From contig JAGXSE010000009.1 in NCBI GenBank assembly GCA_018333865.1, positions 75,460-139,459 on the forward strand: 64,000 bases of DNA, written 5' to 3'. Origin of the DNA: Syntrophomonadaceae bacterium. Lineage in GTDB: Bacteria > Bacillota > PH28-bin88. Position numbers and translations under genes: made by a program. Below, piece by piece: positions 1 to 55,350 of this stretch; within the stretch, counting starts at the first letter, position 1, and every line of letters starts with the position of its first letter. The notes beneath the pieces were generated by a model, which worked only from the letters and a program-made list of their open reading frames with translations, was not told the origin of the DNA and did no database searches.

Positions 1-911
1 GGCAAAACCTTGCAGGGCGACAAATACTCATCTATCTCTCCGTTTTCTATTCGCGGGGGACATACCGATAAACGCTTGTTACATATGTCAGATGCTTTGA
101 TAAAGCTGGCATAACCTTTTATAGATTCGCCCAATGATTCTAATTTACCATAGTCGGGGTATTCCTGTCCGGCCAAGTATTCAATCAGGGCTTCCCCTTC
201 ATTTGCAAAAATAACGTTGCAATATTTGCCTATTGGTCCCATTGAGTCCGCCGATCCAATAAATGAATTGACAAACCCGCCTCCGATTATTATAAATGCC
301 TCTGGCTTTATTTCCTTTATTATCCTGCAAAACAAAACGGCTATTAAAAGCTGACTCTCAAAGGTTATGTTTATACCAACAAGATCACAACCTTTAAAAT
401 CATATGCCATAAGCCATTCTCTGATAAGGAGCGAAAGCTTTGAATCTAGGAACTCAGCTGCGAAATTCTCAATATCATTCCAAACATTCCAACGGTATTT
501 GCTGTCAAGTCCATCCAATCTAAAACGCAAATCGTGATAATTAAACGAATACAAGTCATAACAGGCGCGGACATAATCTATCAGCTCCCAGTATTCGCTT
601 GAAGTTTTGCATATCGACATTTTGTTAATAAGCTCATTATAACTGGTAATATCCCTGCGCAGCCTTATAAATTTTCTGCAGGCCTCTACTTCCAGTTTGC
701 TAAGGTCGGCGTTATTTGGCAGTGCTTCGTTATTACACACTTCTATAATTGCATTTTCAACGACATATTTGACAAACATGTTGTTAAAATCACACAGGTA
801 AAACTCATAATTGACACTGGAAGCAAAACCCGCCATCTGGATCGGTCCAAGCAAAGGAACGGTAGGGTCGAAATTTGGCGGTATGAAAAGATGCATTCCT
901 TTTCTACTCAT
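1..911 (-). CDS. Cobalamin-binding-domain (class B) radical SAM protein, N-terminal ~303 aa only; continues past the window start
   Basis: My own translation of the minus strand from ATG (rc of 909-911) is open to position 1. It reads MSRKGMHLFIPPNFDPTVPLLGPIQMAGF…GINITFESQLLIAVLFCRIIKEIKPEAFIIIGGGFVNS, which resembles the B12-binding domain that precedes the radical SAM core in class B enzymes. It lies 10 nt downstream of the PqqD-like gene on the same strand. Confidence 0.5.
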   Translation of the reverse strand, partial: MSRKGMHLFIPPNFDPTVPLLGPIQMAGFASSVNYEFYLCDFNNMFVKYVVENAIIEVCNNEALPNNADLSKLEVEACRKFIRLRRDITSYNELINKMSICKTSSEYWELIDYVRACYDLYSFNYHDLRFRLDGLDSKYRWNVWNDIENFAAEFLDSKLSLLIREWLMAYDFKGCDLVGINITFESQLLIAVLFCRIIKEIKPEAFIIIGGGFVNSFIGSADSMGPIGKYCNVIFANEGEALIEYLAGQEYPDYGKLESLGESIKGYASFIKASDICNKRLSVCPPRIENGEIDEYLSPCKVL

Positions 912-920
912 ATAAATACC

Positions 921-1199
921 TCAGCCGATCCGCTTGATTAAGCCAAGTTTCAGGAAGCTGTCCAGAGTTTTCATTACCAGTTTATCAATGCCCTCACTCT
1001 GACAGCTGTCTTGTATTGCCTTGATAATAACATCAACCGTATTTATTCCATTGCACAACTCCCAGACTGACATGGCGTCCTCATTCAAAGATAGGGCAGG
1101 TGTAGTTTTCGACACCACCAGCAAACCAAAATTTTCTCTTCTGGTTTTTACACCTTCAACAACACCGAATATCATATCATTGGTTATCACATTTTCCAT
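921..1199 (-). CDS. PqqD-like peptide chaperone (RiPP recognition element)
   Basis: 92 aa. The pattern …ALSLNEDAMSVWELCNGINTVDVIIKAIQ…DSFLKLGLI matches PqqD/RRE proteins. It sits between radical SAM genes in one operon. Confidence 0.6.
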   Translation of the reverse strand: MENVITNDMIFGVVEGVKTRRENFGLLVVSKTTPALSLNEDAMSVWELCNGINTVDVIIKAIQDSCQSEGIDKLVMKTLDSFLKLGLIKRIG

Positions 1200-1217: not shown

Positions 1218-2219
1218 CTAAAATATTGCATATGGGTCGGCACCACAAATGTCGTTTGAATAAGCATATGCAGCAGCTCTGCATCCACCGCGGCATTCTC
1301 GGAAATGACCACAGTTAATGCACTCATCCGGTACATCTGATCCCAGAACATGCTGCTTGAAAATATTTGAGTTGCGTTTTATTTCCGCAAACGGGCTGTC
1401 AAGAATATTCCCGATATTGATCCTGGACATGCCGCACATTAAAACATTTCCATTTATATCTATATAAAATCTTGAGGTGCCAAAATGACAGTATTCACAA
1501 AAAGGCTTTAGGTCATCCGGTAACGCGCAATAAGGAACTGCATTTGCCATTATGACCTTGAGATCGGGGTACTGGTCGATTTTATGTTTAACTGTACTTA
1601 ACGCTGAAATCAGCTGTTGATGAGATAGTGCCAAATATGCATTATCTTTGCCGATACCTGTAGGAGTAAAGCGGGTAAGGGTAATTTCCCGCAGCCCGTT
1701 CGCATATAAAAACTCAATAAAATCACCAACGAAGCTAGAATTTTTACTTGTTAATACAAAGTTAGACGCTATTCTTACACCATTTCCCAACAGAAGCTTT
1801 AATGCGGAAAATGCCAAATCATAGCTACCGCCTACACAAGTCAATTCATCATGTATATGTGACGGACCATGAAGAGATATGTTTGCACCGTAAATACCAC
1901 ATTTTTTGAAAATTTTCACTGTATCATTGGTGATTAATGTACCGTTAGTTTGCACCATTGTCTTCGAGAATAAATTACAGCATTTCTCGATAATAGCGTT
2001 GATTTGAGGGTGTAATAAAGGCTCTCCGCCTGTTAGAACAATCTCCAGCACATCGCTTTGGGCTAATTTGTCGATTATTTCAAATGCCCTGTGGGTAACT
2101 AAAGGATTTTGGCTGTTGTAGCAAAAACGACAGAAAAGATTACACTGTTCCGTTAATTCGAGTTCCACCCTCATAGGGTTCATTTTTATATTTAGATCAA
2201 GCAGCTTATCTTTGTCCAT
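1218..2219 (-). CDS. Radical SAM enzyme with a SPASM-type C-terminal Cys cluster (sacti/ranthipeptide-synthase-like maturase 2)
   Basis: N-terminal CNLFCRFCYN (CxxxCxxC). C-terminal Cys-rich tail …CEYCHFGTSRF…CGMSRINIG…CINCGHFRECRGGC. It is a paralogue of the upstream gene. Confidence 0.85.
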   Translation of the reverse strand: MDKDKLLDLNIKMNPMRVELELTEQCNLFCRFCYNSQNPLVTHRAFEIIDKLAQSDVLEIVLTGGEPLLHPQINAIIEKCCNLFSKTMVQTNGTLITNDTVKIFKKCGIYGANISLHGPSHIHDELTCVGGSYDLAFSALKLLLGNGVRIASNFVLTSKNSSFVGDFIEFLYANGLREITLTRFTPTGIGKDNAYLALSHQQLISALSTVKHKIDQYPDLKVIMANAVPYCALPDDLKPFCEYCHFGTSRFYIDINGNVLMCGMSRINIGNILDSPFAEIKRNSNIFKQHVLGSDVPDECINCGHFRECRGGCRAAAYAYSNDICGADPYAIF

Positions 2220-2222
2220 AAG

Positions 2223-3236
2223 CTATTTCCCCCACTTCCTTGTGGAAATGGTTTCTCCACAAGCGTTTATCGACTCGTCATATACTACGCAGCCGCCTTT
2301 ACACCTGGGAAATTCTTCGCAGCTTCTGCAAGGAACAGGGATATGGCATAACGCTTCGTATTTTTTCCATCCGGGCGCATTCCATATATCATCAAAAGAA
2401 TGAATATTCAAGTCGCCAATTATATCATCCGATATGGTACAAGGTGTGACTTTTCCTGTAGGGCTGATCCTGCATAAACCATAGCCGTATTGACATGGTA
2501 TATTCAATATCCTCAATTTGCTGTGGTATTCGCTATCTATTTCACAATAAGGTACCGGTCCGGGTAAACTGACATCGCTTATTGCAGAGAAATCTTCTTT
2601 TACCTGCAAAAGCAGGTCTATGAGTTTCATGGTCGCTTTGGAATCAAGTAAAAGGCCTTTGTTGTTACTATTATTCAAAATATACCGGGTTGAGCACAAA
2701 GAATAGCAATCCAAACCAGCAGCCAATTTGCCGATGTTGTAAATATCTTCAAAATTTTCAGTTGAAGTGCATACATTAACCTCGACTTTTATTCCATTAT
2801 GTCTTAAGATTTTTATTCCATTTATCACATCGTCATAAGCACCAACTCTTCCCGTCATCTTATCGTGTTTCGATTTGTCGGAATGTAGTATTGACGTACA
2901 AACACTTTTCATGTATCTGGCTATAATTTTCGCTATTTGATCTGTTATTAAAGTGGCATTCGTATTCATGTGCAAATCAAATCCCAAAGTGCCGGCATAT
3001 TCAAGAATATTCTGAAAATCGGACCGCACCAACGGTTCACCGCCGTTAAAGTTAATTCTGAATACGCCGATTCCGCATAATTGATCCAATATTTGTTTGA
3101 TTTTTACAAGGCTCAACTCATTTCCATTGACATGCCCCATGGGATTATAACAAAAATAGCATCTATTATTGCATCGTTCGGTTATCTCAAATTGTACATA
3201 AAATGGAGCTTTACTCCGATTTATCCTTTCAATCAT
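2223..3236 (-). CDS. Radical SAM enzyme with a SPASM-type C-terminal Cys cluster (maturase 1)
   Basis: N-terminal CNNRCYFCYN. C-terminal …CQYGYGLCRISPTGKVTPC…CHIPVPCRSCEEFPRCKGGC. A 3-nt gap separates it from the next gene. Confidence 0.85.
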   Translation of the reverse strand: MIERINRSKAPFYVQFEITERCNNRCYFCYNPMGHVNGNELSLVKIKQILDQLCGIGVFRINFNGGEPLVRSDFQNILEYAGTLGFDLHMNTNATLITDQIAKIIARYMKSVCTSILHSDKSKHDKMTGRVGAYDDVINGIKILRHNGIKVEVNVCTSTENFEDIYNIGKLAAGLDCYSLCSTRYILNNSNNKGLLLDSKATMKLIDLLLQVKEDFSAISDVSLPGPVPYCEIDSEYHSKLRILNIPCQYGYGLCRISPTGKVTPCTISDDIIGDLNIHSFDDIWNAPGWKKYEALCHIPVPCRSCEEFPRCKGGCVVYDESINACGETISTRKWGK

Positions 3237-3305: not shown

Positions 3306-3452
3306 TCACTTGCATGCGCTGCAAGCAGTACACGCAGTACAAGCACAACAGGCGTCCATGTCCCTAATATCGAAGACAACCTCGCTCTCGCTTGAAAAAG
3401 GAACTTTGAACGGGTCAAACACTTCTATCTTTGGAGAAAACTCTTTCTTCAT
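3306..3452 (-). CDS. Candidate RiPP precursor peptide of 48 aa: MKKEFSPKIEVFDPFKVPFSSESEVVFDIRDMDACCACTACTACSACK
   Basis: It is the first gene of the rSAM operon. A strong RBS (AAAGGAGGTGA) lies 5 nt before an internal ATG of the 70-aa ORF in the track. The C-terminal 14 residues carry six Cys, five of them at a strict 3-residue period. Confidence 0.55.
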   Translation of the reverse strand: MKKEFSPKIEVFDPFKVPFSSESEVVFDIRDMDACCACTACTACSACK

Positions 3453-3810
3453 GCCACTCACCTCCTTTAGTCCTAAAATTAAATTTACTGCTCTCATGCT
3501 GCAAACTCTCCCCCTCATTTGCTCCCTTAAAAAGCGTTGAAATACTGGTAAATACTATATTTGTTAAGGTTCAGATAGGAGGAACTTAGCTCCCTTATTT
3601 ATATCTAATTATATGTCAATTTTTTTCATGCTTGTCAATATAAACCAAATTATAAAATTATACTCTTATGATATATTACTTTGAAGCTATCAATTTCTTT
3701 ATGTATACCCGTACTCATAAAATATAAATGTGGTTCAAAGCTACTGAAAACTTGTGAAAGGTAAAAAAGAAACTGTAACAGAACTTTTATTCCATTACAG
3801 CCTCTTTCAT

Positions 3811-3888
3811 TGGAGCCCTCATCCGGAATCGAACCGGAGAAAACTCTTCCTTACCATGGAAGCGCTCTACCTACTGAGCTATGAGGGC
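3811..3888 (-). tRNA. tRNA-Thr (anticodon GGU) with 3' CCA encoded
   Basis: The reverse complement GCCCTCATAGCTCAGTAGGTAGAGCGCTTCCATGGTAAGGAAG…TCCGGTTCGATTCCGGATGAGGGCTCCA folds as a cloverleaf. The anticodon loop is AUGGUAA. The variable region is somewhat long at 7 nt. Confidence 0.65.
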
Positions 3889-4141: not shown

Positions 4142-6206
4142 TTATTTTTCTATGCTTTTTATAAGCTCATTTGCAATATTAGGACTTTCAAGACTCATGA
4201 TGCTTTCCTCTGCACTACCGAAGCTTAATAGATTTATACTCCCATACCATACAATCCTTTGATCTATAACTGCAAATTTTTGGTGTATGTTTGATTTAAA
4301 AACTATACTTACTCCCGCACCTTTCAGGATATCCAATGTCTCTCGCAAAGTTGTCATCTCCTTGCCATTGAAATCATCAGCCGGTCTGGTCACTACAATT
4401 ATTTTCACCTTATTTCCTAAAGCAACCTCCAGGTTTTGCATCATTTGTAAACTACGCTTTCTAGTAACAAACGGACTTACTATCAAAATCTCTCTTGCAG
4501 CATTCACTATGTCATTAGAATATACCGGCAAAAAGTTGCTTTTATCAAAAATAATGTCTATCGACTCTGTTGTAATACTTTCACCTTTTGCTTTATAGCC
4601 AATTGCGGCATATCCGGTAAGTCGCTTATTATACATTTTCTCCAGCATTCTTACATGGATATCTACATAATCGTAGATTTGCACTTCACTTTTTCCTTCA
4701 AATAACCTGTGAAGCCTCCCTGCATATTGCTGCAAGGTTCCTTTCCATGATATAGGCATAGCTAAAAATAAGGTGTCAAGCCTTGGTTCATCAAAGCCCT
4801 CTCCTATATATTTACCTGTCGCCACTAAAGTCAATGGCTTGTCAATCGCAATTGGTTTTATCTATCCAGCAAACTTCTATTCCCAGTCCTTCAAATACAG
4901 CTTTCAAATCTGCTTCACATCCTCTTGGCAGACATAAGTATTCTGCTGTCTCTTCAGCACATGAAATGATTCTGGGTTTATCAAAGGTCGGCATGCGCAT
5001 GGCTTGGGCTTTATAAAATTCAGGGTTTTTGAAAGCCGCCAAACGCTTCAAATGATTTAATGCCCTTTGGGAAATACTGAGTTTCGGTATAAATAACATA
5101 TTGGCTTTTACAATTTCAATACACTGCGGGAAATCATCTTTTAACAGTTTAATCCTGCTTGTTTCCCATGGCTTTTGTGCTTCTTCTTCATCTTTTTTCA
5201 GCACTCCAAGTTCATTTCCCTGGCATAATTTTGATATGAGTATCTCTATGTCATCTTCAGGAAGCTTCTGGATTGAGGCTAAAAATGCCCATTGATCATC
5301 GAATGGTTGAAAATGTTCATCTATAAAAACGCTGTTATTATCTTTTCTTGCAGCTTTTTGCAGCGGCAAAGCAATTAAATGGCCCAAGCCGCCTTTCGGC
5401 ATGGTATCCTGATTAGGAAAAAACCTGTCATATGACTTGAAAGTAATCTCATGCCGTTTGCTCATGGCATAGGTAAGCAATGCACTTCCGAATTTCCTTG
5501 CCAAAGAAGCGGCTATAGGACTTTCAAAGAAAAACCACATATGGGCTCCATTGCCTGACCGTGACCGTTCAACTGTAATAGGAATTTTAAACTCCGAACA
5601 CACCTCCCTCAATGTCGTGACGTCCTTTTGCCACTCTCCATCGTCAAAATCAATGGCTAAAAAATAACAGGTCTCATCAAGGTACATCGGATATATTCCT
5701 GCAATAAATTTATCTTGGCCGCGAAAATCGTTACTACGAAGATCTTTACCACGAAGATGAGCATCAATTACCTTTTCATCTAAAACAAGATAGTCTTTAT
5801 GCTTGCAGTCCGCACATTTAGTTTTTGACTTTTGACAGATACCCGGCTTCCATTCGTTGGCACATGCGGGAGCATATCCGGAAGTCCCTTTCTTACTGTT
5901 CTCCCATCTCTCGGCATAAACATCATCCCGACCTCTAAAGAGTGACATAAACAACTTGATCTTTTCTACAGAATCTGACCCGTTATTAACGGATGGATCT
6001 AAAACTTGAGCAGAATGGTTCTGTTCTGATATTTCCGGCTCAGGTTTATGTTCAAAAATATCATCAGGATTACCCTGTGATTCTTCGATACCGAGTTGAG
6101 CTTTCAAGCTTTTTATTTCTTCTCTTTGGTTTTTTATTTCCTCTCTCAAGTTTTTGTTCTCAGTCAGCAGCGTCTGATACTTTTCAAATAGCTCTTTAAA
6201 ATCCAT
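4142..6206 (-). pseudogene. Disrupted gene: AEP primase-polymerase-like N-terminus + SF2 helicase C-terminal domain + PLD/HKD nuclease, with a frameshift around 4835-4844
   Basis: Two adjacent ORFs in different frames are separated by 7 nt. The upstream ORF has the motifs LAIDFDD and SRSGNGAHMWFFF and ends in the start of a helicase-C domain. The downstream ORF continues …TLVATGKYIGEGFDEPRLDTLFLA…QYAGRLHR (helicase motif VI) and carries an HKD motif (HQKFAVIDQRIVWYGSINL). No Walker A/DExH N-domain was seen. Confidence 0.5.
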
Positions 6207-6312
6207 GTCTTTCCCCTGTATGCAATCAATTTATAATCGTTGCAAGATTAATTCTGCAACAATTGTTTGATTCGTTTATTTTTATTCGTATCATTTATTC
6301 GTATCAAAATGT

Positions 6313-8007
6313 TTATGAGTCGTTAAATTCAAGGTAATAATATGAAGATCGCCCTTTTTGAGCCAATTTTATACCATGAATTTCAAGCTCATGCATCATT
6401 CTTACAACCTGAAGCTTTGTAAGTCCGGTAAATTGCCTTATTTCTTCATTTGTAAGGTTACGTTCCTTCAACAATGTGAGAATACGAATTTTCATGGACT
6501 CTTTGTCGAGCCTCTTGTCCCGGTCATACTCCGTATCACGCTCAAGCAGAGCATATACTGATGCCTTTAAAGTATAGTACTTTCCTTTTGAGGCACCACC
6601 TGACTGTAAAAGCCCAAGCTGGTTTTCCATATTGTTCAACAATTCCCGGGCTTGTTCAATGCTTCTCTGGCATATGTTTGAAGCCTCTAAAGAAGTGATC
6701 TCTCTATGCCTCAGCAAATAATTCAATATAATAAGATGATCTACATCCAATAAAACACCATCATCAGCCATCTTCTTAACAAACCGCCTGAATGCCGGAA
6801 CAAGTGTAGATGCCAGCATCGTCAGTTCAATTGATTCACCAACCTGCCTATACTGCGGCGGTTCCTTGCCTTCAATAAGTAAAGCCTTATAAATTCTTGG
6901 CACTCCAAGGTTTGATCTGTTGACCAACCTCAATTTATCAAGCAAATCTGCCAAATGCGCATTTCTTGTAACCGGCTGATGATGAAGAATGTTCTCTGAA
7001 GTAATTCCACCAATAAAAGTACCCGGATTTGTGAGAATCAGTTTGTCAGGATAATGCTTCAACATAACTGCACTTGGAATTCTGTAATCCCTATGCATAA
7101 AAGCATTCAATAGTGCCTCGCGTAATGCTATCTTTGGATACTTGCTAAACTCAGGATGCACAAAACCAACTTCTATCGTGGTGGAAGGATTGTCAACCGC
7201 CATATACCTTTCCATTTCATATAACGCAATGGGTATTGCATGAACTCCATCATCCTTAATGGAATAATCCGTAGTTCTGAGCATCTTCCGGAATGACCAA
7301 TAATGATTCGGAATATATCTGGCAATTGCATCGTTTGTTCCGGTGAGAAGAAGTCCTCCAAAGGTGAGTCTGCCGTTTTTAATTGCTCCTACGGAAGAAA
7401 GCAAATCCTCATCAGACATTGAAGCTAATGTATCCGGAGCTCTTTCTTCAGTCATCATCATGCGGATTCTTTCCATGGCAACAGCGGAAAAAAGCTCTTT
7501 CCAGTGCATATCAGTCAGATTTGCAGTAAAATCCGCTGTTCCGCTCTGCTCCATTAGGTCTTTCCTCACAGAACCGGTCAACGGCTTACAATCCTTTCCA
7601 ACTCTTATAGTAGCGCTACCATCGGTCTCGGTATATGGTGGCATTCCGGGGAAAATACGCATTACAAGTATTTTACCTGTTCCTTCAGGAACGGTTATCC
7701 ATTCAAAATTAGCTGTAATGTGGGGCTCGGTTCTATCATAAATGGTCTTTTGAAGCATAACAGCATCCACATAAAGGGGCACTCCCTTTATTGCACCATT
7801 TCTACCCCTGACTTTATCTCTGACACCAAAAATTACTACTCCCCCACCGCCGTTTGACATGCACACAGCCATTTTAACAGCCAGATTCTCAGCATCATTG
7901 TTGCTTCTTTCATTCCATTCCTTAAAGTCCAGTTCCTGTCCTTCAAGGTCATCTGCTATATATGTATTCAGTTGCTCCAACAGGGTTAGGATTTCACTTG
8001 TTTTCAT
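6313..8007 (-). CDS. AlbA_2/Schlafen-like ATPase with a C-terminal winged-HTH (COG2865-type putative transcriptional regulator)
   Basis: 564 aa. The N-terminal divergent AAA/AlbA_2-like region contains …GGGGVVIFGVRDKV…. The C-terminal region resembles an HTH (…RNLTNEEIRQFTGLTKLQVVRMMHELE…). Confidence 0.65.
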   Translation of the reverse strand: MKTSEILTLLEQLNTYIADDLEGQELDFKEWNERSNNDAENLAVKMAVCMSNGGGGVVIFGVRDKVRGRNGAIKGVPLYVDAVMLQKTIYDRTEPHITANFEWITVPEGTGKILVMRIFPGMPPYTETDGSATIRVGKDCKPLTGSVRKDLMEQSGTADFTANLTDMHWKELFSAVAMERIRMMMTEERAPDTLASMSDEDLLSSVGAIKNGRLTFGGLLLTGTNDAIARYIPNHYWSFRKMLRTTDYSIKDDGVHAIPIALYEMERYMAVDNPSTTIEVGFVHPEFSKYPKIALREALLNAFMHRDYRIPSAVMLKHYPDKLILTNPGTFIGGITSENILHHQPVTRNAHLADLLDKLRLVNRSNLGVPRIYKALLIEGKEPPQYRQVGESIELTMLASTLVPAFRRFVKKMADDGVLLDVDHLIILNYLLRHREITSLEASNICQRSIEQARELLNNMENQLGLLQSGGASKGKYYTLKASVYALLERDTEYDRDKRLDKESMKIRILTLLKERNLTNEEIRQFTGLTKLQVVRMMHELEIHGIKLAQKGRSSYYYLEFNDS

Positions 8008-8036
8008 TGTAATACCTCATTTCTGCCATTCACAAA

Positions 8037-8429
8037 TTACTGAGCATGTTTCAATTTCATAATTGCTTGCCTTATCGCTTCACTTTCCGAAATATTATTT
8101 GTCTGACAATAATTATTCAATATTTCTACAATTTCCTCGTCCATCCGTATTGTAATCCTTTTTTCTTTAACAGTCTCTTTCTTTGGCCTTCCCTTTGCTA
8201 ATGGTTTTCTTCTGTACTGTTTTTTGTCAGACAGATATTCAATAATCAAGATTCTATCTCGCTCATAAAATTTCTTATTTTTAACAATCAACTCTTCCCA
8301 AAGCATCTTTGCCTTTTCTGCTGTCTCAGCCCATTCTTTTTGGTATTGTTCCTTTTCCTTGCTATTCTTAGACTTTGCTATCTGCTTTAACATTAAAGTC
8401 TGCAAATCCTTATAAGTTTCACACTTCAT
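8037..8429 (-). CDS. Ribbon-helix-helix (CopG-like) domain protein
   Basis: 130 aa, Lys/Glu-rich. The C-terminal stretch RITIRMDEEIVEILNNYCQTNNISESEAIRQAIMKL is typical of RHH DNA-binding proteins. Confidence 0.4.
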   Translation of the reverse strand: MKCETYKDLQTLMLKQIAKSKNSKEKEQYQKEWAETAEKAKMLWEELIVKNKKFYERDRILIIEYLSDKKQYRRKPLAKGRPKKETVKEKRITIRMDEEIVEILNNYCQTNNISESEAIRQAIMKLKHAQ

Positions 8430-8562
8430 ATCAGTAGCGTTGCATAAAACCTACCTACCAAAATTCTAGTGCAAGGATGCAAATACCATTATTATAATTT
8501 ATTACATTATTGGTGTATACACCCAAGTAGCTTTCTGGCCGCTGTGTAAAGGGACTAACCAC

Positions 8563-9893
8563 TTAACGGGTAGTCCTCATCCACATTTTGCCACATATGT
8601 GCTTGGTTACAGTATTACTGGGTCGTAGGACAGATAATTTAGAAGACCTGTCTCGCCTGCTACCACCTGCCTCACGGTTAGTTGATAAATTCCCTCATGA
8701 TCTATCCTTCGTCGGCCTCTTGAGCTTCGTTGGGGCGTCCGATAAAGCTTTTGGACGAAGGACGTGAACGGGTCGCAGAGGCAGGTGTGGATCAGCCTTT
8801 TAATTGTCAGTAAGGACCCCTTGTAGCCCACTTTCAGTTTTATCAGCATCAGCAGGCAGTAGGTGATGAGCGCTATGAATATCTGGTTTTCCACCGCTTG
8901 CTCGCTTGTCCCATAAAAGTGTTTTACGCGAAGGTGCTGTTTAATCCATTTGAAGAAGAGTTCGATTTGCCAGCGGTAGCGGTAGATGGTGCTTATTTCT
9001 TCGGCTGTTAGCTTAAAGTCGTTGGTGATGATGATTACCGGATTGCCTTGGGTATCCTCGGTTTCCGCCAGCCGTAAAGAGTATTTCATTTTGTTGACGC
9101 CTTCTTTACCCAGGTAAACGATTTGGTGTTTCTTAATGGGGCCATCGGGATCTACTGGAAGCTCTGCAACGACTTCAATTATCGCATTACCCTTTAAACG
9201 GGTAATAAATCTGATGCCTTTTTCGCAGTACTTATCAAACTTATTGTAGTCCACGTATCCCCGGTCAAAGACGTTTAAAGCATCTTCTTCCTCAACCACT
9301 AGGGTATCCATCTGGGTTTTGTCAGCAGGCTTGGTAGGGGTAATTACAACTTCATCAGGAAAAACCCCTTGCTCAAAAAATCTAAGCCCCAGATGTATCT
9401 TGATACCGCCTTTGGTCTTTCTAAATTTAGCCCAAAGGAACTGGGAAAGACACAGGCTAATGGTCGTGGAATCAATTAGGCGAAGACGTCCTAATTCTTG
9501 GCTAACGGTATCAAACCCAATTTCTTTTCCGGCTTGAGTTTTTACGTCATTAAACAGCAACTGGAGAACTTCTGTTGGCAGTTCCCTTAGTTTGCGGGAA
9601 ATCTGGGAAGCGCTGATGGATTTAAGAGCAATTGCTTCGCTAATCTTATCGTCACTGAGACTATAGCTGATGTCCCGTAAACCGCGTAGCTGTTCGATTT
9701 GAGCATTGGCTACAAGTTCAATGAGTTGTATGGTGTATAATTTTTTAGCGTATCTATCAACCCCCATTTCTTCTACTTGCTGCCGAAATTTTTCACTGGA
9801 AACTGGCCCAAAGAATTGATGAAATGTGGATATTGTGGTATCCTTGCCTTGCATAATTATCTCCCTTATTTTAGAGATTTGAGCAAGGACTAC
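8563..9893 (-). mobile_element. Complete IS4-family insertion sequence with ~11-14 bp terminal inverted repeats (…AGGACTACCC / GGGTAGTCCT…)
   Basis: Inverted repeats at 8567-8580 and 9877-9892 flank the transposase ORF. Confidence 0.5.
8607..9854 (-). CDS. IS4-family DDE transposase
   Basis: 415 aa with …TIYRYRWQIELFFKWIKQHL…, a signature of IS4/IS1634-group transposases. Confidence 0.85.
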   Translation of the reverse strand: MQGKDTTISTFHQFFGPVSSEKFRQQVEEMGVDRYAKKLYTIQLIELVANAQIEQLRGLRDISYSLSDDKISEAIALKSISASQISRKLRELPTEVLQLLFNDVKTQAGKEIGFDTVSQELGRLRLIDSTTISLCLSQFLWAKFRKTKGGIKIHLGLRFFEQGVFPDEVVITPTKPADKTQMDTLVVEEEDALNVFDRGYVDYNKFDKYCEKGIRFITRLKGNAIIEVVAELPVDPDGPIKKHQIVYLGKEGVNKMKYSLRLAETEDTQGNPVIIITNDFKLTAEEISTIYRYRWQIELFFKWIKQHLRVKHFYGTSEQAVENQIFIALITYCLLMLIKLKVGYKGSLLTIKRLIHTCLCDPFTSFVQKLYRTPQRSSRGRRRIDHEGIYQLTVRQVVAGETGLLNYLSYDPVIL

Positions 9894-11480: not shown

Positions 11481-12515
11481 CTACATCGATTCGAATGTTG
11501 TCATTGCTACCCGTGTGCGTGAACACACCCAACGTTTTATCAAGTTCTCCGTTTCGCCGCCAACGCGCCGGACCACTGCCTGCAGGGCAGTCTGGAGGAT
11601 ACGCTCTGAGCGAGCGCCTAGGTTAGCACCAACGCGACATACTTCGCCTAAGCGTAGCCCCGTCCAGCACTGAACGAACTCGGCTAGACCAATGCATGTC
11701 AAGACACTTTCAACAGATGCTTCCGTTAATCCACCAAGGATTGTTGCTCTGCTCAACTGGCGATGTCGTCGGCAGTGGCATGGAAACCCATGCATCGACA
11801 GCACGTGACAGTCTGGGCAGCGGTCTGGGTCGAACCACCCGCAACCTTCGAGGTAGTGTAAGGAGTTACGCGAGCCTGCATTTTCGCTCAGGATAGCGGG
11901 AACAAGCTCCTTTGCGGAAAGGGATTTCCGGCCGCCCAATACTAGGGTGAGCACCCGTGCACTCACAATGATGAACTCCCCTGGAGGCGAGAGTAGGCAG
12001 TAGGCCCCCAGCATGCCTGAGCAGTTCCGGAAATGAACCTTGTTAAACCCTTTGAAGACACCAGAAACACCGGTAAACTCAGGAAAGCTCGTCAACATTG
12101 CAAGCTGCCCAAGATCGACTTCATACCTGGCTGCATCCCGTCCCGTGCTCCTGCCTTGTCGCTTGGCTTGAATTAGACACGCCCTCTGAAACACGGGCTG
12201 CCCATCGTGGACATACGTACCCAGCACAAAGAGGTCGGCGAGCTCCCGCTGATATTCGGTCTTACCGACTTGAAACTTTACCTGTGATTTGGAACCGTGC
12301 AGGAAAGCTGCCTCCACCTCTAACTTCAAGAACATCCCTTTGTTAAGCTTCACTTCGACTGATTGCATGTTGTGTATGGCTTGCACAATCGCCTGCACGC
12401 ACCCCACTTCGCCCTGCTGGGTGCCATATGCGTCTTCCAGCCCGCAACGAATTTGTGTAATGAGATCCCACTGCCAGTCTTGAACAACGGACGCTTGTAA
12501 GAATTTGTCAAGCAT
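11481..12515 (-). CDS. Hypothetical protein of 344 aa with no recognisable domain, GC-rich
   Basis: Long ORF with composition distinct from the AT-rich neighbours. It is co-directional with the MNT/HEPN pair upstream and the HEPN-like gene downstream. Confidence 0.5.
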   Translation of the reverse strand: MLDKFLQASVVQDWQWDLITQIRCGLEDAYGTQQGEVGCVQAIVQAIHNMQSVEVKLNKGMFLKLEVEAAFLHGSKSQVKFQVGKTEYQRELADLFVLGTYVHDGQPVFQRACLIQAKRQGRSTGRDAARYEVDLGQLAMLTSFPEFTGVSGVFKGFNKVHFRNCSGMLGAYCLLSPPGEFIIVSARVLTLVLGGRKSLSAKELVPAILSENAGSRNSLHYLEGCGWFDPDRCPDCHVLSMHGFPCHCRRHRQLSRATILGGLTEASVESVLTCIGLAEFVQCWTGLRLGEVCRVGANLGARSERILQTALQAVVRRVGGETENLIKRWVCSRTRVAMTTFESM

Positions 12516-12581
12516 TGCCAGAGTGACCTCCTGGGTATTTCATTCCAACTTGCGAAGATATTCCGGATTTAAGGGACTGTT

Positions 12582-12955
12582 TCATTTGTTCATCAAAGAC
12601 CTGATAGCCTTCAAAAAACTCTCCGCAGCAAGGATAGCCCGCTCCGTTTGTGGCTTGGATACGTGTGCCGTGCCCCCATAATCCCCAACATTTCGTATTT
12701 CAAAAAGCCAGTTTAAATCCTTGCCATGTTCCTTGTTTAATTTCCCCGTCTTAACGAATCTTTGATGGATCGAAGCAATGACTCCGCTATGCTTGCTGAA
12801 ATCCAAACCCTCGTTCAGCAAAACGGCTATGGCTGCATAATACGCACGCGATGCCGCAAAATCGTGGTAACCTTTAACAGCCAAGTCTTTAGCCACTTGG
12901 ATAGACTGCCCGGCTCGTTCCAGGTTGGCGGCAATTTCCTGCTCTAGTTCCGGCG

Positions 12956-12959
<4 letters not shown>
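12582..12959 (-). CDS. HEPN-domain protein, putative toxin partner of the MNT gene
   Basis: 125 aa. It overlaps the upstream nucleotidyltransferase gene by 4 nt. The motif region is EIRNVGDYGGTAH. Confidence 0.55.
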
Positions 12960-13273
<314 letters not shown>

Positions 13274-14870: not shown

Positions 14871-15921
14871 CCCTGATTTTCCGCCACTTGGCGTTTCTGC
14901 CCATCTCAATTGGTTCTATTAATTTTTGGTCTTTCAACTCCTTTAAGACACGGTAGATGGTGGGTCTGCTGATATCCGGGCAGATGTTTTCTAGATCCGA
15001 AATGGTAAATTGCTGAACAAAGCGGCGGATAGCCTCCTCGATCCGCTTGCTTTTGCTCCCCTTGTAGGAAGTAATGTTGCCTACCCTCTCCTCAAATTGC
15101 CGGTAGGCCGCCAAAAGAACTCCCAGGAAATATTCCAGCCAGGGCAACAAATCATGCTTGCCTTCACGCCAATTGATCGAGGACCTGTAGAGAGTCTCAT
15201 AATAAGATTCTTTTGTCTTTTCGATTAGCTTTTCCAGGCTTATGAACCTGCCTACTTCATAGCCCAATTTATACAGCACTAAAAGGGTTAAAAGCCTAAC
15301 CATGCGTCCGTTGCCGTCGCTGAAAGGATGTATGCAGAGAAAGTCAAGCACAAATGCTGCCGCAACAATTAAGGGATCGTTTTTCCCTTCTTCTATTTCA
15401 CGGGTCAGGGCATGGCAAAGCTCATCCATTACCCTTGGGGTATCAAAAGCAGAAACTGGCATAAACCTGATGAATCGTGTGCCATCTGGCCTGACTTCCA
15501 CTATCTCGCTATCGGAACTCTTCCAGCTGCCCCCCTTAAAACTGCTGAACGTGTAAAGGTCCCGGTGAAACTGCCTGATGACAGAAGGATTAACAGGGAT
15601 ATGCTCATAGGAAGCATAAATTGTCGCCAAGACATCCCTGTAGCCGGCAATTTCCCCTTCAGACCTGTCCCGGGGTGTGGCTGTCTCATCCATCAACTGC
15701 CTGAGCCTGGACGAGCTAATTGTTATTCCTTCAATACTGTTTGAAGCTTCTGTGCTTTGAATAACTGCCACTTGTCTCAATGCATCCAAGACTTGCGGTG
15801 ACTGCTGCCTGTACAGGTCCTGCTTTCCTTTGAACTGGTTAATCTGCCCGATAGTTGATACAACAGACATGGGGACAAGTAAACGTTCAAGATTAATAAA
15901 CGACTTCAATGTGATCAACAA
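14863..15921 (-). CDS. Fic/DOC family protein with a C-terminal wHTH
   Basis: HPFSDGNGRMVRLL matches the Fic motif HPFx[DE]GNGR. Confidence 0.8.
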   Translation of the reverse strand: MLITLKSFINLERLLVPMSVVSTIGQINQFKGKQDLYRQQSPQVLDALRQVAVIQSTEASNSIEGITISSSRLRQLMDETATPRDRSEGEIAGYRDVLATIYASYEHIPVNPSVIRQFHRDLYTFSSFKGGSWKSSDSEIVEVRPDGTRFIRFMPVSAFDTPRVMDELCHALTREIEEGKNDPLIVAAAFVLDFLCIHPFSDGNGRMVRLLTLLVLYKLGYEVGRFISLEKLIEKTKESYYETLYRSSINWREGKHDLLPWLEYFLGVLLAAYRQFEERVGNITSYKGSKSKRIEEAIRRFVQQFTISDLENICPDISRPTIYRVLKELKDQKLIEPIEMGRNAKWRKIRGN

Positions 15922-16118
15922 CCTTCTTTAATATTATCAAATATGCTCTTCGTGATAATATTTATAGCCAAATTATAATCTTTTTAAGCTATTAAGGCAA
16001 TAAAATAACGCCAATTGATCATGTTTTTCTCATCACGGCGTTCCTGGCTAGTAATATAGCTAGATAGGTTAAAAATAAAAAAACCGGATAGTTAATCCGA
16101 TTTTTGCTTTCATAAGGA

Positions 16119-16194
16119 TGGAGCCCATAACCGGGATTGAACCGGTGACCTCCGCCTTACCAAGGCGACGCTCTACCTACTGAGCTATATGGGC
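16119..16194 (-). tRNA. tRNA-Thr (anticodon GGU)
   Basis: Reverse complement GCCCATATAGCTCAGTAGGTAGAGCGTCGCCTTGGTAAGGCGGAGGTCACCGGTTCAATCCCGGTTATGGGCTCCA. Confidence 0.8.
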
Positions 16195-16195
16195 A

Positions 16196-16271
16196 TGGTT
16201 GCGGGGGATGGATTTGAACCAACGACCTTCGGGTTATGAGCCCGACGAGCTGCCAACTGCTCCACCCCGCA
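16196..16271 (-). tRNA. Initiator-type tRNA-Met (anticodon CAU, GGG/CCC anticodon stem)
   Basis: Reverse complement TGCGGGGTGGAGCAGTTGGCAGCTCGTCGGGCTCATAACCCGAAGGTCGTTGGTTCAAATCCATCCCCCGCAACCA is near-identical to bacterial tRNA-fMet. Confidence 0.8.
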
Positions 16272-16370
16272 TCAGAATGCATGACGCAGAATTATTGTCG
16301 AATTCGCGGAGCGAATTCCTTCAATACTTCCTGCCTCTTGCTTCTTGCCTCTAGCCTCTTGCCTCTTGAA

Positions 16371-16455
16371 TGGTGGAGAGGGCTGGATTTGAACCAGCGA
16401 AGGCTGAGCCAACAGATTTACAGTCTGCCCCCTTTGGCCGCTCGGGAACCTCTCC
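16371..16455 (-). tRNA. tRNA-Tyr (anticodon GUA) with a long variable arm
   Basis: Reverse complement GGAGAGGTTCCCGAGCGGCCAAAGGGGGCAGACTGTAAATCTGTTGGCTCAGCCTTCGCTGGTTCAAATCCAGCCCTCTCCACCA. Confidence 0.85.
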
Positions 16456-16605
16456 ACTAGGTCAGCTTAACTGACGAAGATAATTATAGCACCGGCCAGG
16501 TTTGGCGTCAAGAATAATCCACCGAAAACACCACCCATTTATTGGGAACTCAATTGGCAAGTCAAATGCACTCCGGATAACGGTTTAGGGTGCGAAAAAT
16601 TTCAG

Positions 16606-16640
16606 CCGGCGATACGCCGGCTTTGGTGGCTTAGGTCAAT
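16606..16640 (-). terminator. Rho-independent terminator downstream of sigH
   Basis: On the minus strand: AGCCGGCGUAUCGCCGGCU followed by GAAAUUUUUCG. Confidence 0.5.
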
Positions 16641-16644
16641 TTGA

Positions 16645-17289
16645 TTAATTGCCTCTTCTCTCCAGATATCGCTCCAACTTTCGCTTCACCCTTTGCAGGG
16701 CATTATCGATGGATTTGACATGGCGCTTAAGATCAATGGCTATTTCATGATAGGATTTGCCTTCCAGGTAAGACATTAACACCTGCCACTCCAAAGAACT
16801 GAGGATTTCTCCCATCTTCTCCTCGATGTCATCAAACTCTTCCCGGCTGATGATCAGCTCTTCCGGGTCAGTCACTTTGGAACCGGAGATAACATCCAGC
16901 AATGTACGGTCCGAATCTTCATCATAAATAGGCTTATTCAATGAAACATAGGAATTCAGGGGAATATGTTTCTGCCTGGTGGCGGTCTTAATAGCTGTGA
17001 TAATTTGCCTGGTAATGCACAGCTCGGCAAAAGCCCTGAAGGAAGAAAGCTTATCTCCCCGGAAGTCTCTGATTGCCTTATAAAGGCCAATCATACCCTC
17101 TTGAATAATATCCTCCCGGTCTGCCCCGATTAAAAAATAAGACCTGGCCTTCGCCCGTACAAAATTTTTATATTTATTAATTAAAAATTCCTGCGCAATA
17201 TCGTCGCCGTCTTGGGCCAGTTCGACGATGTCCTCATCAATCATCACTTCGAAGGCAACGCAGGTTTCTCGTTGGGCAGTAATGCTCAT
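16645..17289 (-). CDS. sigH: RNA polymerase sigma factor SigH
   Basis: 214 aa with sigma-70 regions 2 and 4. It holds the conserved position after yacP and rlmB. Confidence 0.85.
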   Translation of the reverse strand: MSITAQRETCVAFEVMIDEDIVELAQDGDDIAQEFLINKYKNFVRAKARSYFLIGADREDIIQEGMIGLYKAIRDFRGDKLSSFRAFAELCITRQIITAIKTATRQKHIPLNSYVSLNKPIYDEDSDRTLLDVISGSKVTDPEELIISREEFDDIEEKMGEILSSLEWQVLMSYLEGKSYHEIAIDLKRHVKSIDNALQRVKRKLERYLERRGN

Positions 17290-55172: not shown

Positions 55173-55350
55173 TTGCTTTCCGTCCCGGTCCATAGGATCC
55201 AAGCGGCTTTTGATTTTTGGGTAACTACGTAATAGGTGCAGCTCCAGCAGGATGCTGCCCTTAGCCGTATTTTAACATGCCTTTGGAAGGGGAGCAATAG
55301 GCCTGGTGCATTACATTGAAAACTGTCTTAATTAGAACAAAACTTGGCAC

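Follow-up and report, generated by a model that had tools for sequence, protein, structure and literature searches.

A family of cysteine-triplet peptides encoded beside radical-SAM enzymes, proposed as ribosomal peptide precursors

A 64,000-nucleotide (nt) stretch of a Syntrophomonadaceae metagenome-assembled genome (GenBank assembly GCA_018333865.1, contig JAGXSE010000009.1, forward-strand positions 75,460 to 139,459; hereafter the window) carries on its minus strand, at 3306-3452, a short gene whose product ends in closely spaced cysteines. We consider it probable that this open reading frame (ORF) is the structural gene of a post-translationally tailored ribosomal peptide, that is, the precursor of a RiPP (a peptide that is synthesized ribosomally and then modified post-translationally), and that it belongs to an undescribed family. 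For the window locus, the precursor interpretation is well supported. The gene is the first of an operon in which it is followed by two radical S-adenosylmethionine (SAM) enzymes, here called rSAM1 and rSAM2. A search with rSAM1 gave 124 relatives at E < 1e-20, and 48 loci were fetched via rSAM1 homologs. A same-strand peptide with a matching leader and a Cys-triplet tail lies upstream of rSAM1 in 41 of these 48 loci, with a median of 69 nt from the peptide stop to rSAM1. Among the seven loci without the peptide, two are on contigs that start within the gene and two carry distant (29-30%) enzymes. L011, from Clostridium sp. 19966, is the only one of the rSAM1-anchored genome loci identified as belonging to a strain that is not a metagenome-assembled genome. 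A preliminary description of this DNA had proposed a genuine short precursor-type peptide adjoining a radical-SAM pair, to be abandoned if the Cys periodicity were missing from orthologous loci. The periodicity is kept in those loci, and their conservation supports the proposal.

The peptide gene, its start codon, and its conservation

Direct translation of the minus strand from 3452 to 3306 gives 48 codons plus a stop (ATG at 3452-3450, TGA at 3308-3306) and the 48-amino-acid (aa) product MKKEFSPKIEVFDPFKVPFSSESEVVFDIRDMDACCACTACTACSACK (MKKEF…DACCACTACTACSACK). The Cys-rich periodic peptide described earlier, and the DNA quoted for it, are confirmed by this translation; the core reads tgt tgt gct tgt act gcg tgt act gct tgc agc gca tgc aag tga. 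Cys occupies residues 35, 36, 38, 41, 44, and 47. The three-residue register that had been noted holds Cys35, Cys38, Cys41, Cys44, and Cys47, which makes four C-x2-C intervals and not the five that had been counted, with Cys36 as an additional residue. Across 120 family members, Ala precedes Cys in 396 of 407 cases, and Thr, Ser, or Cys follows it in 403 of 407. From these counts the repeat, while periodic as first reported, is better given as Ala-Cys-(Thr/Ser/Cys), and Cys36 simply occupies the Ser/Thr slot of the first unit.

In the window peptide, the core A34-CCACTACTACSAC-K48 (3309-3353, minus strand) is made of Ala-Cys-(Cys/Thr/Ser) triplets with an Ala-Cys-Lys end. The leader contains eight acidic residues, five basic residues, and four Phe. 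Its motif, F5-S-P-K-I-E-V-F-D-P-F-K-V-P-F19 (3396-3440, minus strand), corresponds in our family alignment (A2) to the consensus F-x-P-x-[IVM]-E-[IVM]-F-x-x-F-x-x-P-F, with P18 and F19 invariant and F5, P7, E10, and F12 at least 90% conserved. The main core of the window's clade is ACCACTAC[ST]ACSAC[KR]; the other main core, ACCACTACTACR, is identical across distant phyla. Variants with more or fewer units also occur, such as ACSACSACSACSACSACK in locus L036, and the number of repeats ranges from three to at least six while the unit stays constant (L036, L016, and L039). The core of a distant clade terminates in KCTPCQCCACR.

Each codon column of the core uses two to seven synonymous codons with the amino acid fixed (19 and 10 loci), and core Ser is encoded by both TCN and AGY codons. 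Synonymous variation around fixed residues argues for selection on the protein and not on a DNA repeat; on this codon pattern, the precursor is shown to be a translated peptide under very strong purifying selection. The back-translated pattern TGY-NNN-GCN-TGY-NNN-GCN-TGY has three overlapping matches in the window, all of them in the precursor, where 0.05 would be expected, and none of 100 shuffles attained three matches.

A profile search of the protein database with the peptide returned 245 clusters at 90% identity, Patescibacteria entries included, and every named member of the family there is a "hypothetical protein". The precursor has no Pfam or NCBIfam match. No description of the family was found in the literature, including the text of a compendium of 15,000 RiPP radical-SAM enzymes; in these searches, the core letters A, C, and T were read as DNA and returned primers. 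This is a widespread, undescribed, and unnamed peptide family, and no curated family accommodates its core or its set of enzymes.

The preliminary description had also set an automatically called 70-codon ORF, starting 22 codons upstream, against an internal ATG favored by its ribosome-binding site. The longer ORF indeed begins at 3518, 22 codons 5' of the internal ATG, and the evidence sides with the internal start. A strong Shine-Dalgarno sequence, AAAGGAGGTG (3459-3468, minus strand), is read in the DNA, its GGAGG 8 nt from the internal ATG; L009, the closest homolog, whose peptide is 95% identical, has the same arrangement. Sequence conservation sets in with the internal Met, and a stop codon lies shortly 5' of it (1-10 codons) in many homologs. 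In L009, an in-frame TGA 13 codons 5' of the start position prevents any extension. Because conservation begins at this Met and homologs carry stops just upstream, we take the internal ATG to be the true start and the 48-aa reading to be right. Database members are mostly called at 47-54 aa; some gene callers give a 63-aa product for the precursor. At the start position of L009 itself (7796-7798) the codon is ATA, with the Shine-Dalgarno sequence intact. It may be a rare start codon, translation may begin at an in-frame GTG three codons 5', or the ATA may be an assembly error.

About 200 nt upstream of the precursor lies TTCAAA-17-TATAAT (3657-3685, minus strand), the best-scoring promoter-like site of the region at 10/12. 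It is weak evidence, and despite this score the region holds as many promoter-like sites in total as shuffling predicts. No attenuator hairpin exceeds shuffle expectation in the interval from the precursor to rSAM1 (z = 0.9).

The operon and its enzymes

On the same strand, the precursor is followed in order by rSAM1, rSAM2, a PqqD-type protein, and a B12-type radical-SAM enzyme. We read the remainder of the operon from longer contigs carrying an identical rSAM1 (e.g., L001). Beyond the window edge come a class-I SAM methyltransferase, a 570-aa UvrA-like ATPase, a third SPASM/twitch radical-SAM enzyme (rSAM3), and an M19 peptidase, and 3' of the peptidase lie housekeeping genes on the opposite strand. 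The radical-SAM pair noted earlier is therefore part of a larger set, as the operon encodes four radical-SAM enzymes in total.

rSAM1 (2223-3236, minus strand; 337 aa) matches the Pfam Radical_SAM and SPASM domains and has the motifs CX3CX2C and CX2CX5CX3C. rSAM2 (1218-2219, minus strand; 333 aa) is likewise a radical SAM/SPASM enzyme, with 27% identity to rSAM1, and both enzymes retain the two motifs in all complete homologs. rSAM1 has four further invariant barrel Cys (C113, C156, C181, and C231), three of which lie in VCTS, VCTS, and LCST motifs. The PqqD-family protein (921-1199, minus strand; 92 aa) is a discrete polypeptide that scores 25.6 bits on Pfam PqqD (cutoff 23.4) and is likely the leader-binding RiPP recognition element (RRE). 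The B12-type enzyme (1-911, minus strand) is cut by the window edge, which leaves the N-terminal 303 codons of 680 aa, and is complete in L001. It matches PhpK-type and RiPP C-methyltransferase families weakly, and its orthologs in a second clade, clade B, match the Pfam B12-binding domain. The locus has the general features of RiPP clusters: a leader and a separate core beside a maturase, SPASM motifs, and a PqqD/RRE protein.

Among the 13 loci with at least 7.5 kb of downstream DNA, rSAM2 is present in 13, the B12-type enzyme in 12, and the PqqD protein and the UvrA-like ATPase in 11 each. The precursor, rSAM1, rSAM2, PqqD protein, B12-type enzyme, and UvrA-like ATPase are thus shown to travel together in Bacillota, Spirochaetota, Desulfobacterota, and others. 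The methyltransferase, rSAM3, and M19 peptidase are restricted mainly to the window's clade.

Some clusters depart from this layout. L039 encodes two tandem precursors (ORFs 2-214 and 225-467) with longer, differing cores (…PCTACSACGVCSACSACSACWG and …PCACTACTACSACGGCACACSACM); rSAM3 is present, and the DNA available downstream of rSAM1, roughly 6 kb, contains no B12 enzyme or UvrA-like gene. L016, from an alphaproteobacterium, resembles L039. Clade B has an extra protein of 451-583 aa between PqqD and the B12 enzyme (L020, 2403-4154; L023, 10306-11661; 19% identity), which is unmatched in Pfam and NCBIfam and is not similar to the longer B12 enzyme of clade A. The Thermincola cluster L023 has three B12-binding radical-SAM genes (6087-7658, 11678-13246, and 15501-16889), whereas the window's clade has one.

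The 570-aa protein was initially labeled ABC_tran. It scores 366 bits on TIGR00630 (cutoff 730), its residues 120-542 align to UvrA 475-903, and an N-terminal Walker A is present. In having two ATP-binding domains, a score below the cutoff for true UvrA, and no UvrB-binding region, it agrees with UvrA-like self-resistance proteins. Its Protein Data Bank (PDB) matches include UvrA, UvrA2 (2vf7), and Ecm16 (7sh1). An ABC transporter was rejected on the TIGR00630 and PDB matches, and by these alignments the protein is a UvrA paralog. Clade-B and distant-clade ATPases are 730-790 aa long; the UvrA DNA-binding domain is clear in the distant-clade L026 (48.7 bits), and the clade-B L020 falls just under the Pfam cutoff. 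All ATPases of radical-SAM clusters retain the zinc module CxxC…CxxC. In PADLOC, which has no curated cutoffs, the radical-SAM domains match pVip and the ATPase matches AriA and PtuA (<30 bits), mostly at the level of the fold. On the same uncurated scale, components of MADS are matched by the ATPase (102 bits on mad3, 53 on mad8) and the methyltransferase (40 on mad2).

Neither the SPASM enzymes nor the other enzymes of the operon reach an NCBIfam family cutoff. The best families for the SPASM enzymes, at about 94-119 bits, are NirJ2, AhbD, PqqE, MftC, GeoRSP, and ScmE. The ACGX maturase model TIGR04340 gives 57-58 bits (cutoff 400), and no SCIFF maturase is among the 25 best families shown for rSAM1 or rSAM2. 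By sequence, the best solved relative is PqqE for rSAM1 and the thioether-forming SkfB for rSAM2. An AlphaFold model of rSAM1 (AF2; predicted local distance difference test score, pLDDT, 80.7) is closest to SkfB, BlsE, PqqE, SuiB, CteB, anSME, and TigE. The predicted fold places rSAM1 among SPASM/twitch enzymes that mostly modify peptides (BlsE is a nucleoside enzyme) and does not distinguish among their chemistries.

Readings of the peptide and its partners

If the gene encodes a RiPP precursor, the PqqD protein would bind the F-x-P-x-I-E-V-F-x-x-F-x-x-P-F leader and present the tail to rSAM1 and rSAM2, and this pair would act repeatedly, unit by unit, on the Ala-Cys-(Thr/Ser/Cys) tail. Unit-by-unit action is argued from the variable repeat number with a constant unit. 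The strict Ala on one side of each Cys and the hydroxyl or thiol residue on the other suggest chemistry between direct neighbors. The reaction we tentatively favor, with appreciably less assurance than the precursor assignment itself, joins each Cys sulfur to a carbon of a neighboring residue, so that the tail becomes a series of small thioether rings. The B12 enzyme and the methyltransferase would probably add methyl groups, and the M19 peptidase would probably trim the product. By analogy with Ecm16 and DrrC, the UvrA-like ATPase would most simply provide self-protection, which would make the product DNA-directed; UvrA-like genes in biosynthetic clusters confer self-resistance to DNA binders (PMC9328131 and PMC10413001).

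Several observations weigh against this account, in whole or in part. The "ladder of small rings" already suggested in the preliminary description is plausible as an inference, and neither SPASM enzyme reaches the cutoff of a thioether-forming family. Scores on the sactisynthases are 64-65 bits for AlbA (cutoff 850), 68-80 for SkfB (cutoff 300), and 87-94 for StsB (cutoff 625); on the ranthipeptide enzyme PapB, rSAM2 scores 76.6 (cutoff 340). Of the best-scoring families, NirJ2, AhbD, PqqE, MftC, and GeoRSP do not form thioethers. The window-type cluster contains neither an exporter nor a leader protease. Most seriously, the peptide also occurs outside radical-SAM clusters. We examined eight contexts anchored on the peptide, from Parcubacteria, other Patescibacteria-type contigs, one DPANN-like archaeon carrying genes for fibrillarin and Nop, and one phage-like contig on which portal and capsid genes lie, and found no radical-SAM maturase or PqqD gene within 9 kb in any of them. 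The sole radical-SAM-domain gene in the eight contexts, a 232-aa one, lies beside NrdD genes in L063. The peptide may not always require modification, or these genomes may encode the enzymes at other loci; these unaccompanied peptides are the main objection to a simple RiPP-precursor reading for the family as a whole. The small ATPases of the Patescibacteria and DPANN contexts, moreover, are without the zinc module, and this apparent loss weakens a DNA-based reading for those proteins.

The peptides in these contexts retain the leader and the exact core AAACCACTACTACR. A UvrA-like ATPase of 465-490 aa is immediately adjacent in six of the eight, and an ABC transporter of about 600 aa with membrane domains is nearby in three of those six. 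These minimal ATPases share 52-71% identity with one another across bacteria and archaea and 30-37% with the versions from radical-SAM clusters. Three further homologs of the minimal ATPase have no peptide within 5 kb; the ATPase family is therefore wider than the peptide family, and the association of peptide with ATPase is one-sided. In one genome, peptide and ATPase stand apart on one contig. In the phage-like locus L062, the peptide gene (9001-9150) sits between genes for a 909-aa AAA protein and a major head protein, with portal and exonuclease genes near and no UvrA-like gene seen. A profile scan and the back-translated core pattern both returned no matches among IMG/VR viral contigs, and because both were negative we regard this locus as an exception.

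The recurring link of the peptide to a UvrA-like ATPase could make the family more than a set of radical-SAM-tailored RiPPs. A broader proposal, which we hold to be doubtful but worth stating, is that the conserved unit consists of the Cys-triplet peptide and the UvrA-like ATPase, as a mobile two-gene module that free-living anaerobes would share with Patescibacteria, DPANN archaea, and at least one phage. Whether tailored by radical-SAM enzymes or left bare, the peptide would act on DNA or on the ATPase, and the ATPase would counteract or handle it.

A related and, in our view, unlikely explanation is that the unmodified peptide serves the UvrA-like ATPase as a small partner that binds metal or an iron-sulfur cluster, with radical-SAM genes added later in some lineages. 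The cluster motif of clostridial ferredoxin, C-I-A-C-G-A-C, is similar to C-x2-C-x2-C with Ala before Cys. In ultra-small organisms, the ATPase is the only recurrent neighbor (the six of eight contexts above), the leader is conserved there although no PqqD gene is nearby, and the minimal ATPases have lost a zinc module of their own. Against such a partner, the genes directly downstream of the window peptide encode two intact SPASM enzymes and then a PqqD protein, a layout characteristic of peptide modification, and the radical-SAM genes of the small genomes could be encoded elsewhere. The restriction of the position after Cys to Thr, Ser, or Cys would not be needed for a pure metal site. The repeat number varies, and the ATPase homologs that have no peptide nearby indicate that the pair is not obligatory.

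The enzyme matches raise a different and rather improbable alternative, in which a small redox cofactor or metal chelator is excised from the tail of the peptide, as for pyrroloquinoline quinone (PQQ) or mycofactocin, and the product is not an antibiotic-like peptide. A discrete PqqD protein, small SPASM enzymes without fused leader-binding domains, the place of PqqE and MftC among the best families, and PqqE as the best solved relative of rSAM1 by sequence all fit it, as do a core (ACCACTACTACR) identical across distant phyla and the lack of an exporter in the window cluster. The scores, however, are far under the equivalog cutoffs (PqqE, 111 and 81 bits against 381; MftC, 105 and 107 against 265), and a varying number of units is a poor fit to a cofactor built from fixed residues. 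No partner oxidoreductase travels with the cluster, whose conserved neighbor is instead the UvrA-like ATPase, and several minimal contexts do include the membrane-spanning ABC transporters of about 600 aa.

Still less credible is conversion of each Cys and the following Ser, Thr, or Cys to thiazole and oxazole, giving flat paired rings that bind DNA or gyrase as in microcin B17. In each unit, a small residue does precede an adjacent pair of residues able to form rings, in resemblance to the Gly-Cys-Ser and Gly-Ser-Cys sites of microcin B17, and a UvrA-like protein would suit a DNA-directed product. The cluster proteins scanned (L001, L020, L023, and L026) nevertheless include no YcaO cyclodehydratase, E1-like partner, or flavin dehydrogenase, and we know of no radical-SAM enzymes that make azoles on peptides. 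Finally, translation from an upstream ATG (3518 or 3497) into a 63-70-aa non-precursor protein, or an ORF that is the chance product of a DNA repeat, can practically be set aside: AAGGGAG does lie 5 nt before the ATG at 3518 and some gene callers choose the 63-aa product, but the extension is unconserved and interrupted by stops in homologs (1-10 codons before the Met, and the L009 TGA), most database members are 47-54 aa long, and the codon pattern indicates selection on the protein.

We return to tailored ribosomal peptides as our preferred reading, and rate the family as radical-SAM-tailored with a core and enzymes outside the curated families. Radical-SAM peptide clusters are a main source of new enzyme chemistry. 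This family comprises at least 245 peptide clusters (90% identity), its core triplets are residue-for-residue constant across phyla, and in the window's operon as many as four radical-SAM enzymes, none assignable to a curated family, would do the tailoring. A chain of small sulfur-bridged rings, if the tail does form one, would represent a new type of peptide scaffold. Should the UvrA-like ATPase prove to be a resistance protein, strict anaerobes would be the source of a ribosomal peptide directed at DNA. DNA gyrase is poisoned by microcin B17; to our knowledge, no DNA-binding ribosomal peptide with UvrA-type protection has been described. The two-gene module, if real, would be the first ribosomal peptide family protected in this way, and ultra-small organisms would have a conflict or toxin-immunity system based on a peptide. 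The occurrence of the peptide in Patescibacteria and a DPANN-like archaeon without nearby tailoring genes is a concrete lead into the biology of these poorly understood organisms.

Genomic setting and relation to known systems

The operon has a G+C content of 38%, compared with 51-58% for the genes beyond it and a window mean of 48%, and it adjoins a tRNA-Thr gene and a stretch of defense and mobile genes. From its low G+C content, the adjacent tRNA-Thr, and these neighbors, we conclude that the operon was horizontally acquired. The tRNA-Thr(GGU) gene (3811-3888, minus strand), directly upstream of the precursor, is a lower-scoring copy with a T-rich variable region. A second, different tRNA-Thr(GGU) gene (16119-16194, minus strand) stands beside tRNA-Met and tRNA-Tyr (16119-16455). 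We considered the two copies as integration repeats and rejected this, as they are two distinct full genes with 79% column identity over aligned 141-nt stretches that include the flanks. Right after the first tRNA-Thr, and before the promoter-like site, is a terminator-like 20-bp stem with a T tract (3765-3808, minus strand).

Between the tRNA-Thr genes, at 4142-9854 on the minus strand, is a conflict and mobile block with a G+C content of 39-45%. It encodes a PLD-like nuclease, a TOTE-type archaeo-eukaryotic primase (340 bits), a Schlafen/AlbA_2 plus HATPase protein, a ribbon-helix-helix protein, and an IS4 transposase, and in L001 HEPN and nucleotidyltransferase genes lie further along. The block looks like a defense island abutting the peptide cluster. 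Elsewhere in the window, a cis-regulatory RNA of the Rfam "pan motif" is found at 55176-55261 on the minus strand (62 bits; gathering cutoff 36).

Several known systems resemble parts of the window cluster. In thuricin CD biosynthesis, the paired radical-SAM enzymes TrnC and TrnD cooperate on thioether formation (PMC12093266), and, as in the window, two adjacent SPASM enzymes with intact clusters are encoded next to a Cys-containing precursor. Among solved structures, the sactipeptide enzyme SkfB is nearest to rSAM2 in sequence and to rSAM1 in fold. Sactipeptide cores, in contrast, form a hairpin with donor Cys on one side and acceptors on the other, whereas the triplets here are a linear run of Ala-Cys-Ser/Thr; the leader-binding PqqD protein is separate here and not fused to an enzyme, and the cluster adds a B12 enzyme and a UvrA-like ATPase.

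The proposed ladder has its best precedent in freyrasin, in which a SPASM enzyme, PapB (NCBIfam NF047865), processes a short Cys repeat and makes several small thioether rings unit by unit. Freyrasin units are C-x3-D and are joined at the Asp β-carbon, whereas the core here has no Asp and a period of three. Enteropeptin contains a six-membered ring between adjacent residues. Two systems known only from bioinformatics are also alike: the ACGX system (TIGR04340) has an Ala-Cys repeat peptide, with a period of four and a Gly, and SynChlorMet has a SPASM pair, ScmE and ScmF (TIGR04250 and TIGR04251), with a Cys-motif peptide. The window enzymes, however, score 58-94 bits on these models against cutoffs of 400. 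The PqqA/PqqD/PqqE and MftA/MftB/MftC systems share a short precursor, a discrete PqqD-type chaperone, and a SPASM enzyme of about 330-380 aa, but act at one fixed site, unlike a variable-length Cys repeat served by two to four radical-SAM enzymes.

For the ATPase, Ecm16 and DrrC (PMC9328131 and PMC10413001) are likewise UvrA paralogs within biosynthetic operons. The examples found belong to actinobacterial polyketide or non-ribosomal clusters; a genome-mining paper gives RiPPs as just one cluster class, with no detail. The window type, at 570 aa, is shorter, and the type of about 466 aa in the candidate phyla radiation (CPR) and DPANN has no zinc module. A last parallel concerns the repeat itself. 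Whereas the chemistry of the poly-cyclopropylglycine system TigB/TigE (PMC9062424) takes place on Val methyl groups and involves no Cys, its TVGG repeats recur in the core like the triplets described here, each TVGG copy being modified by radical-SAM enzymes, and TigE is a structural neighbor of rSAM1.

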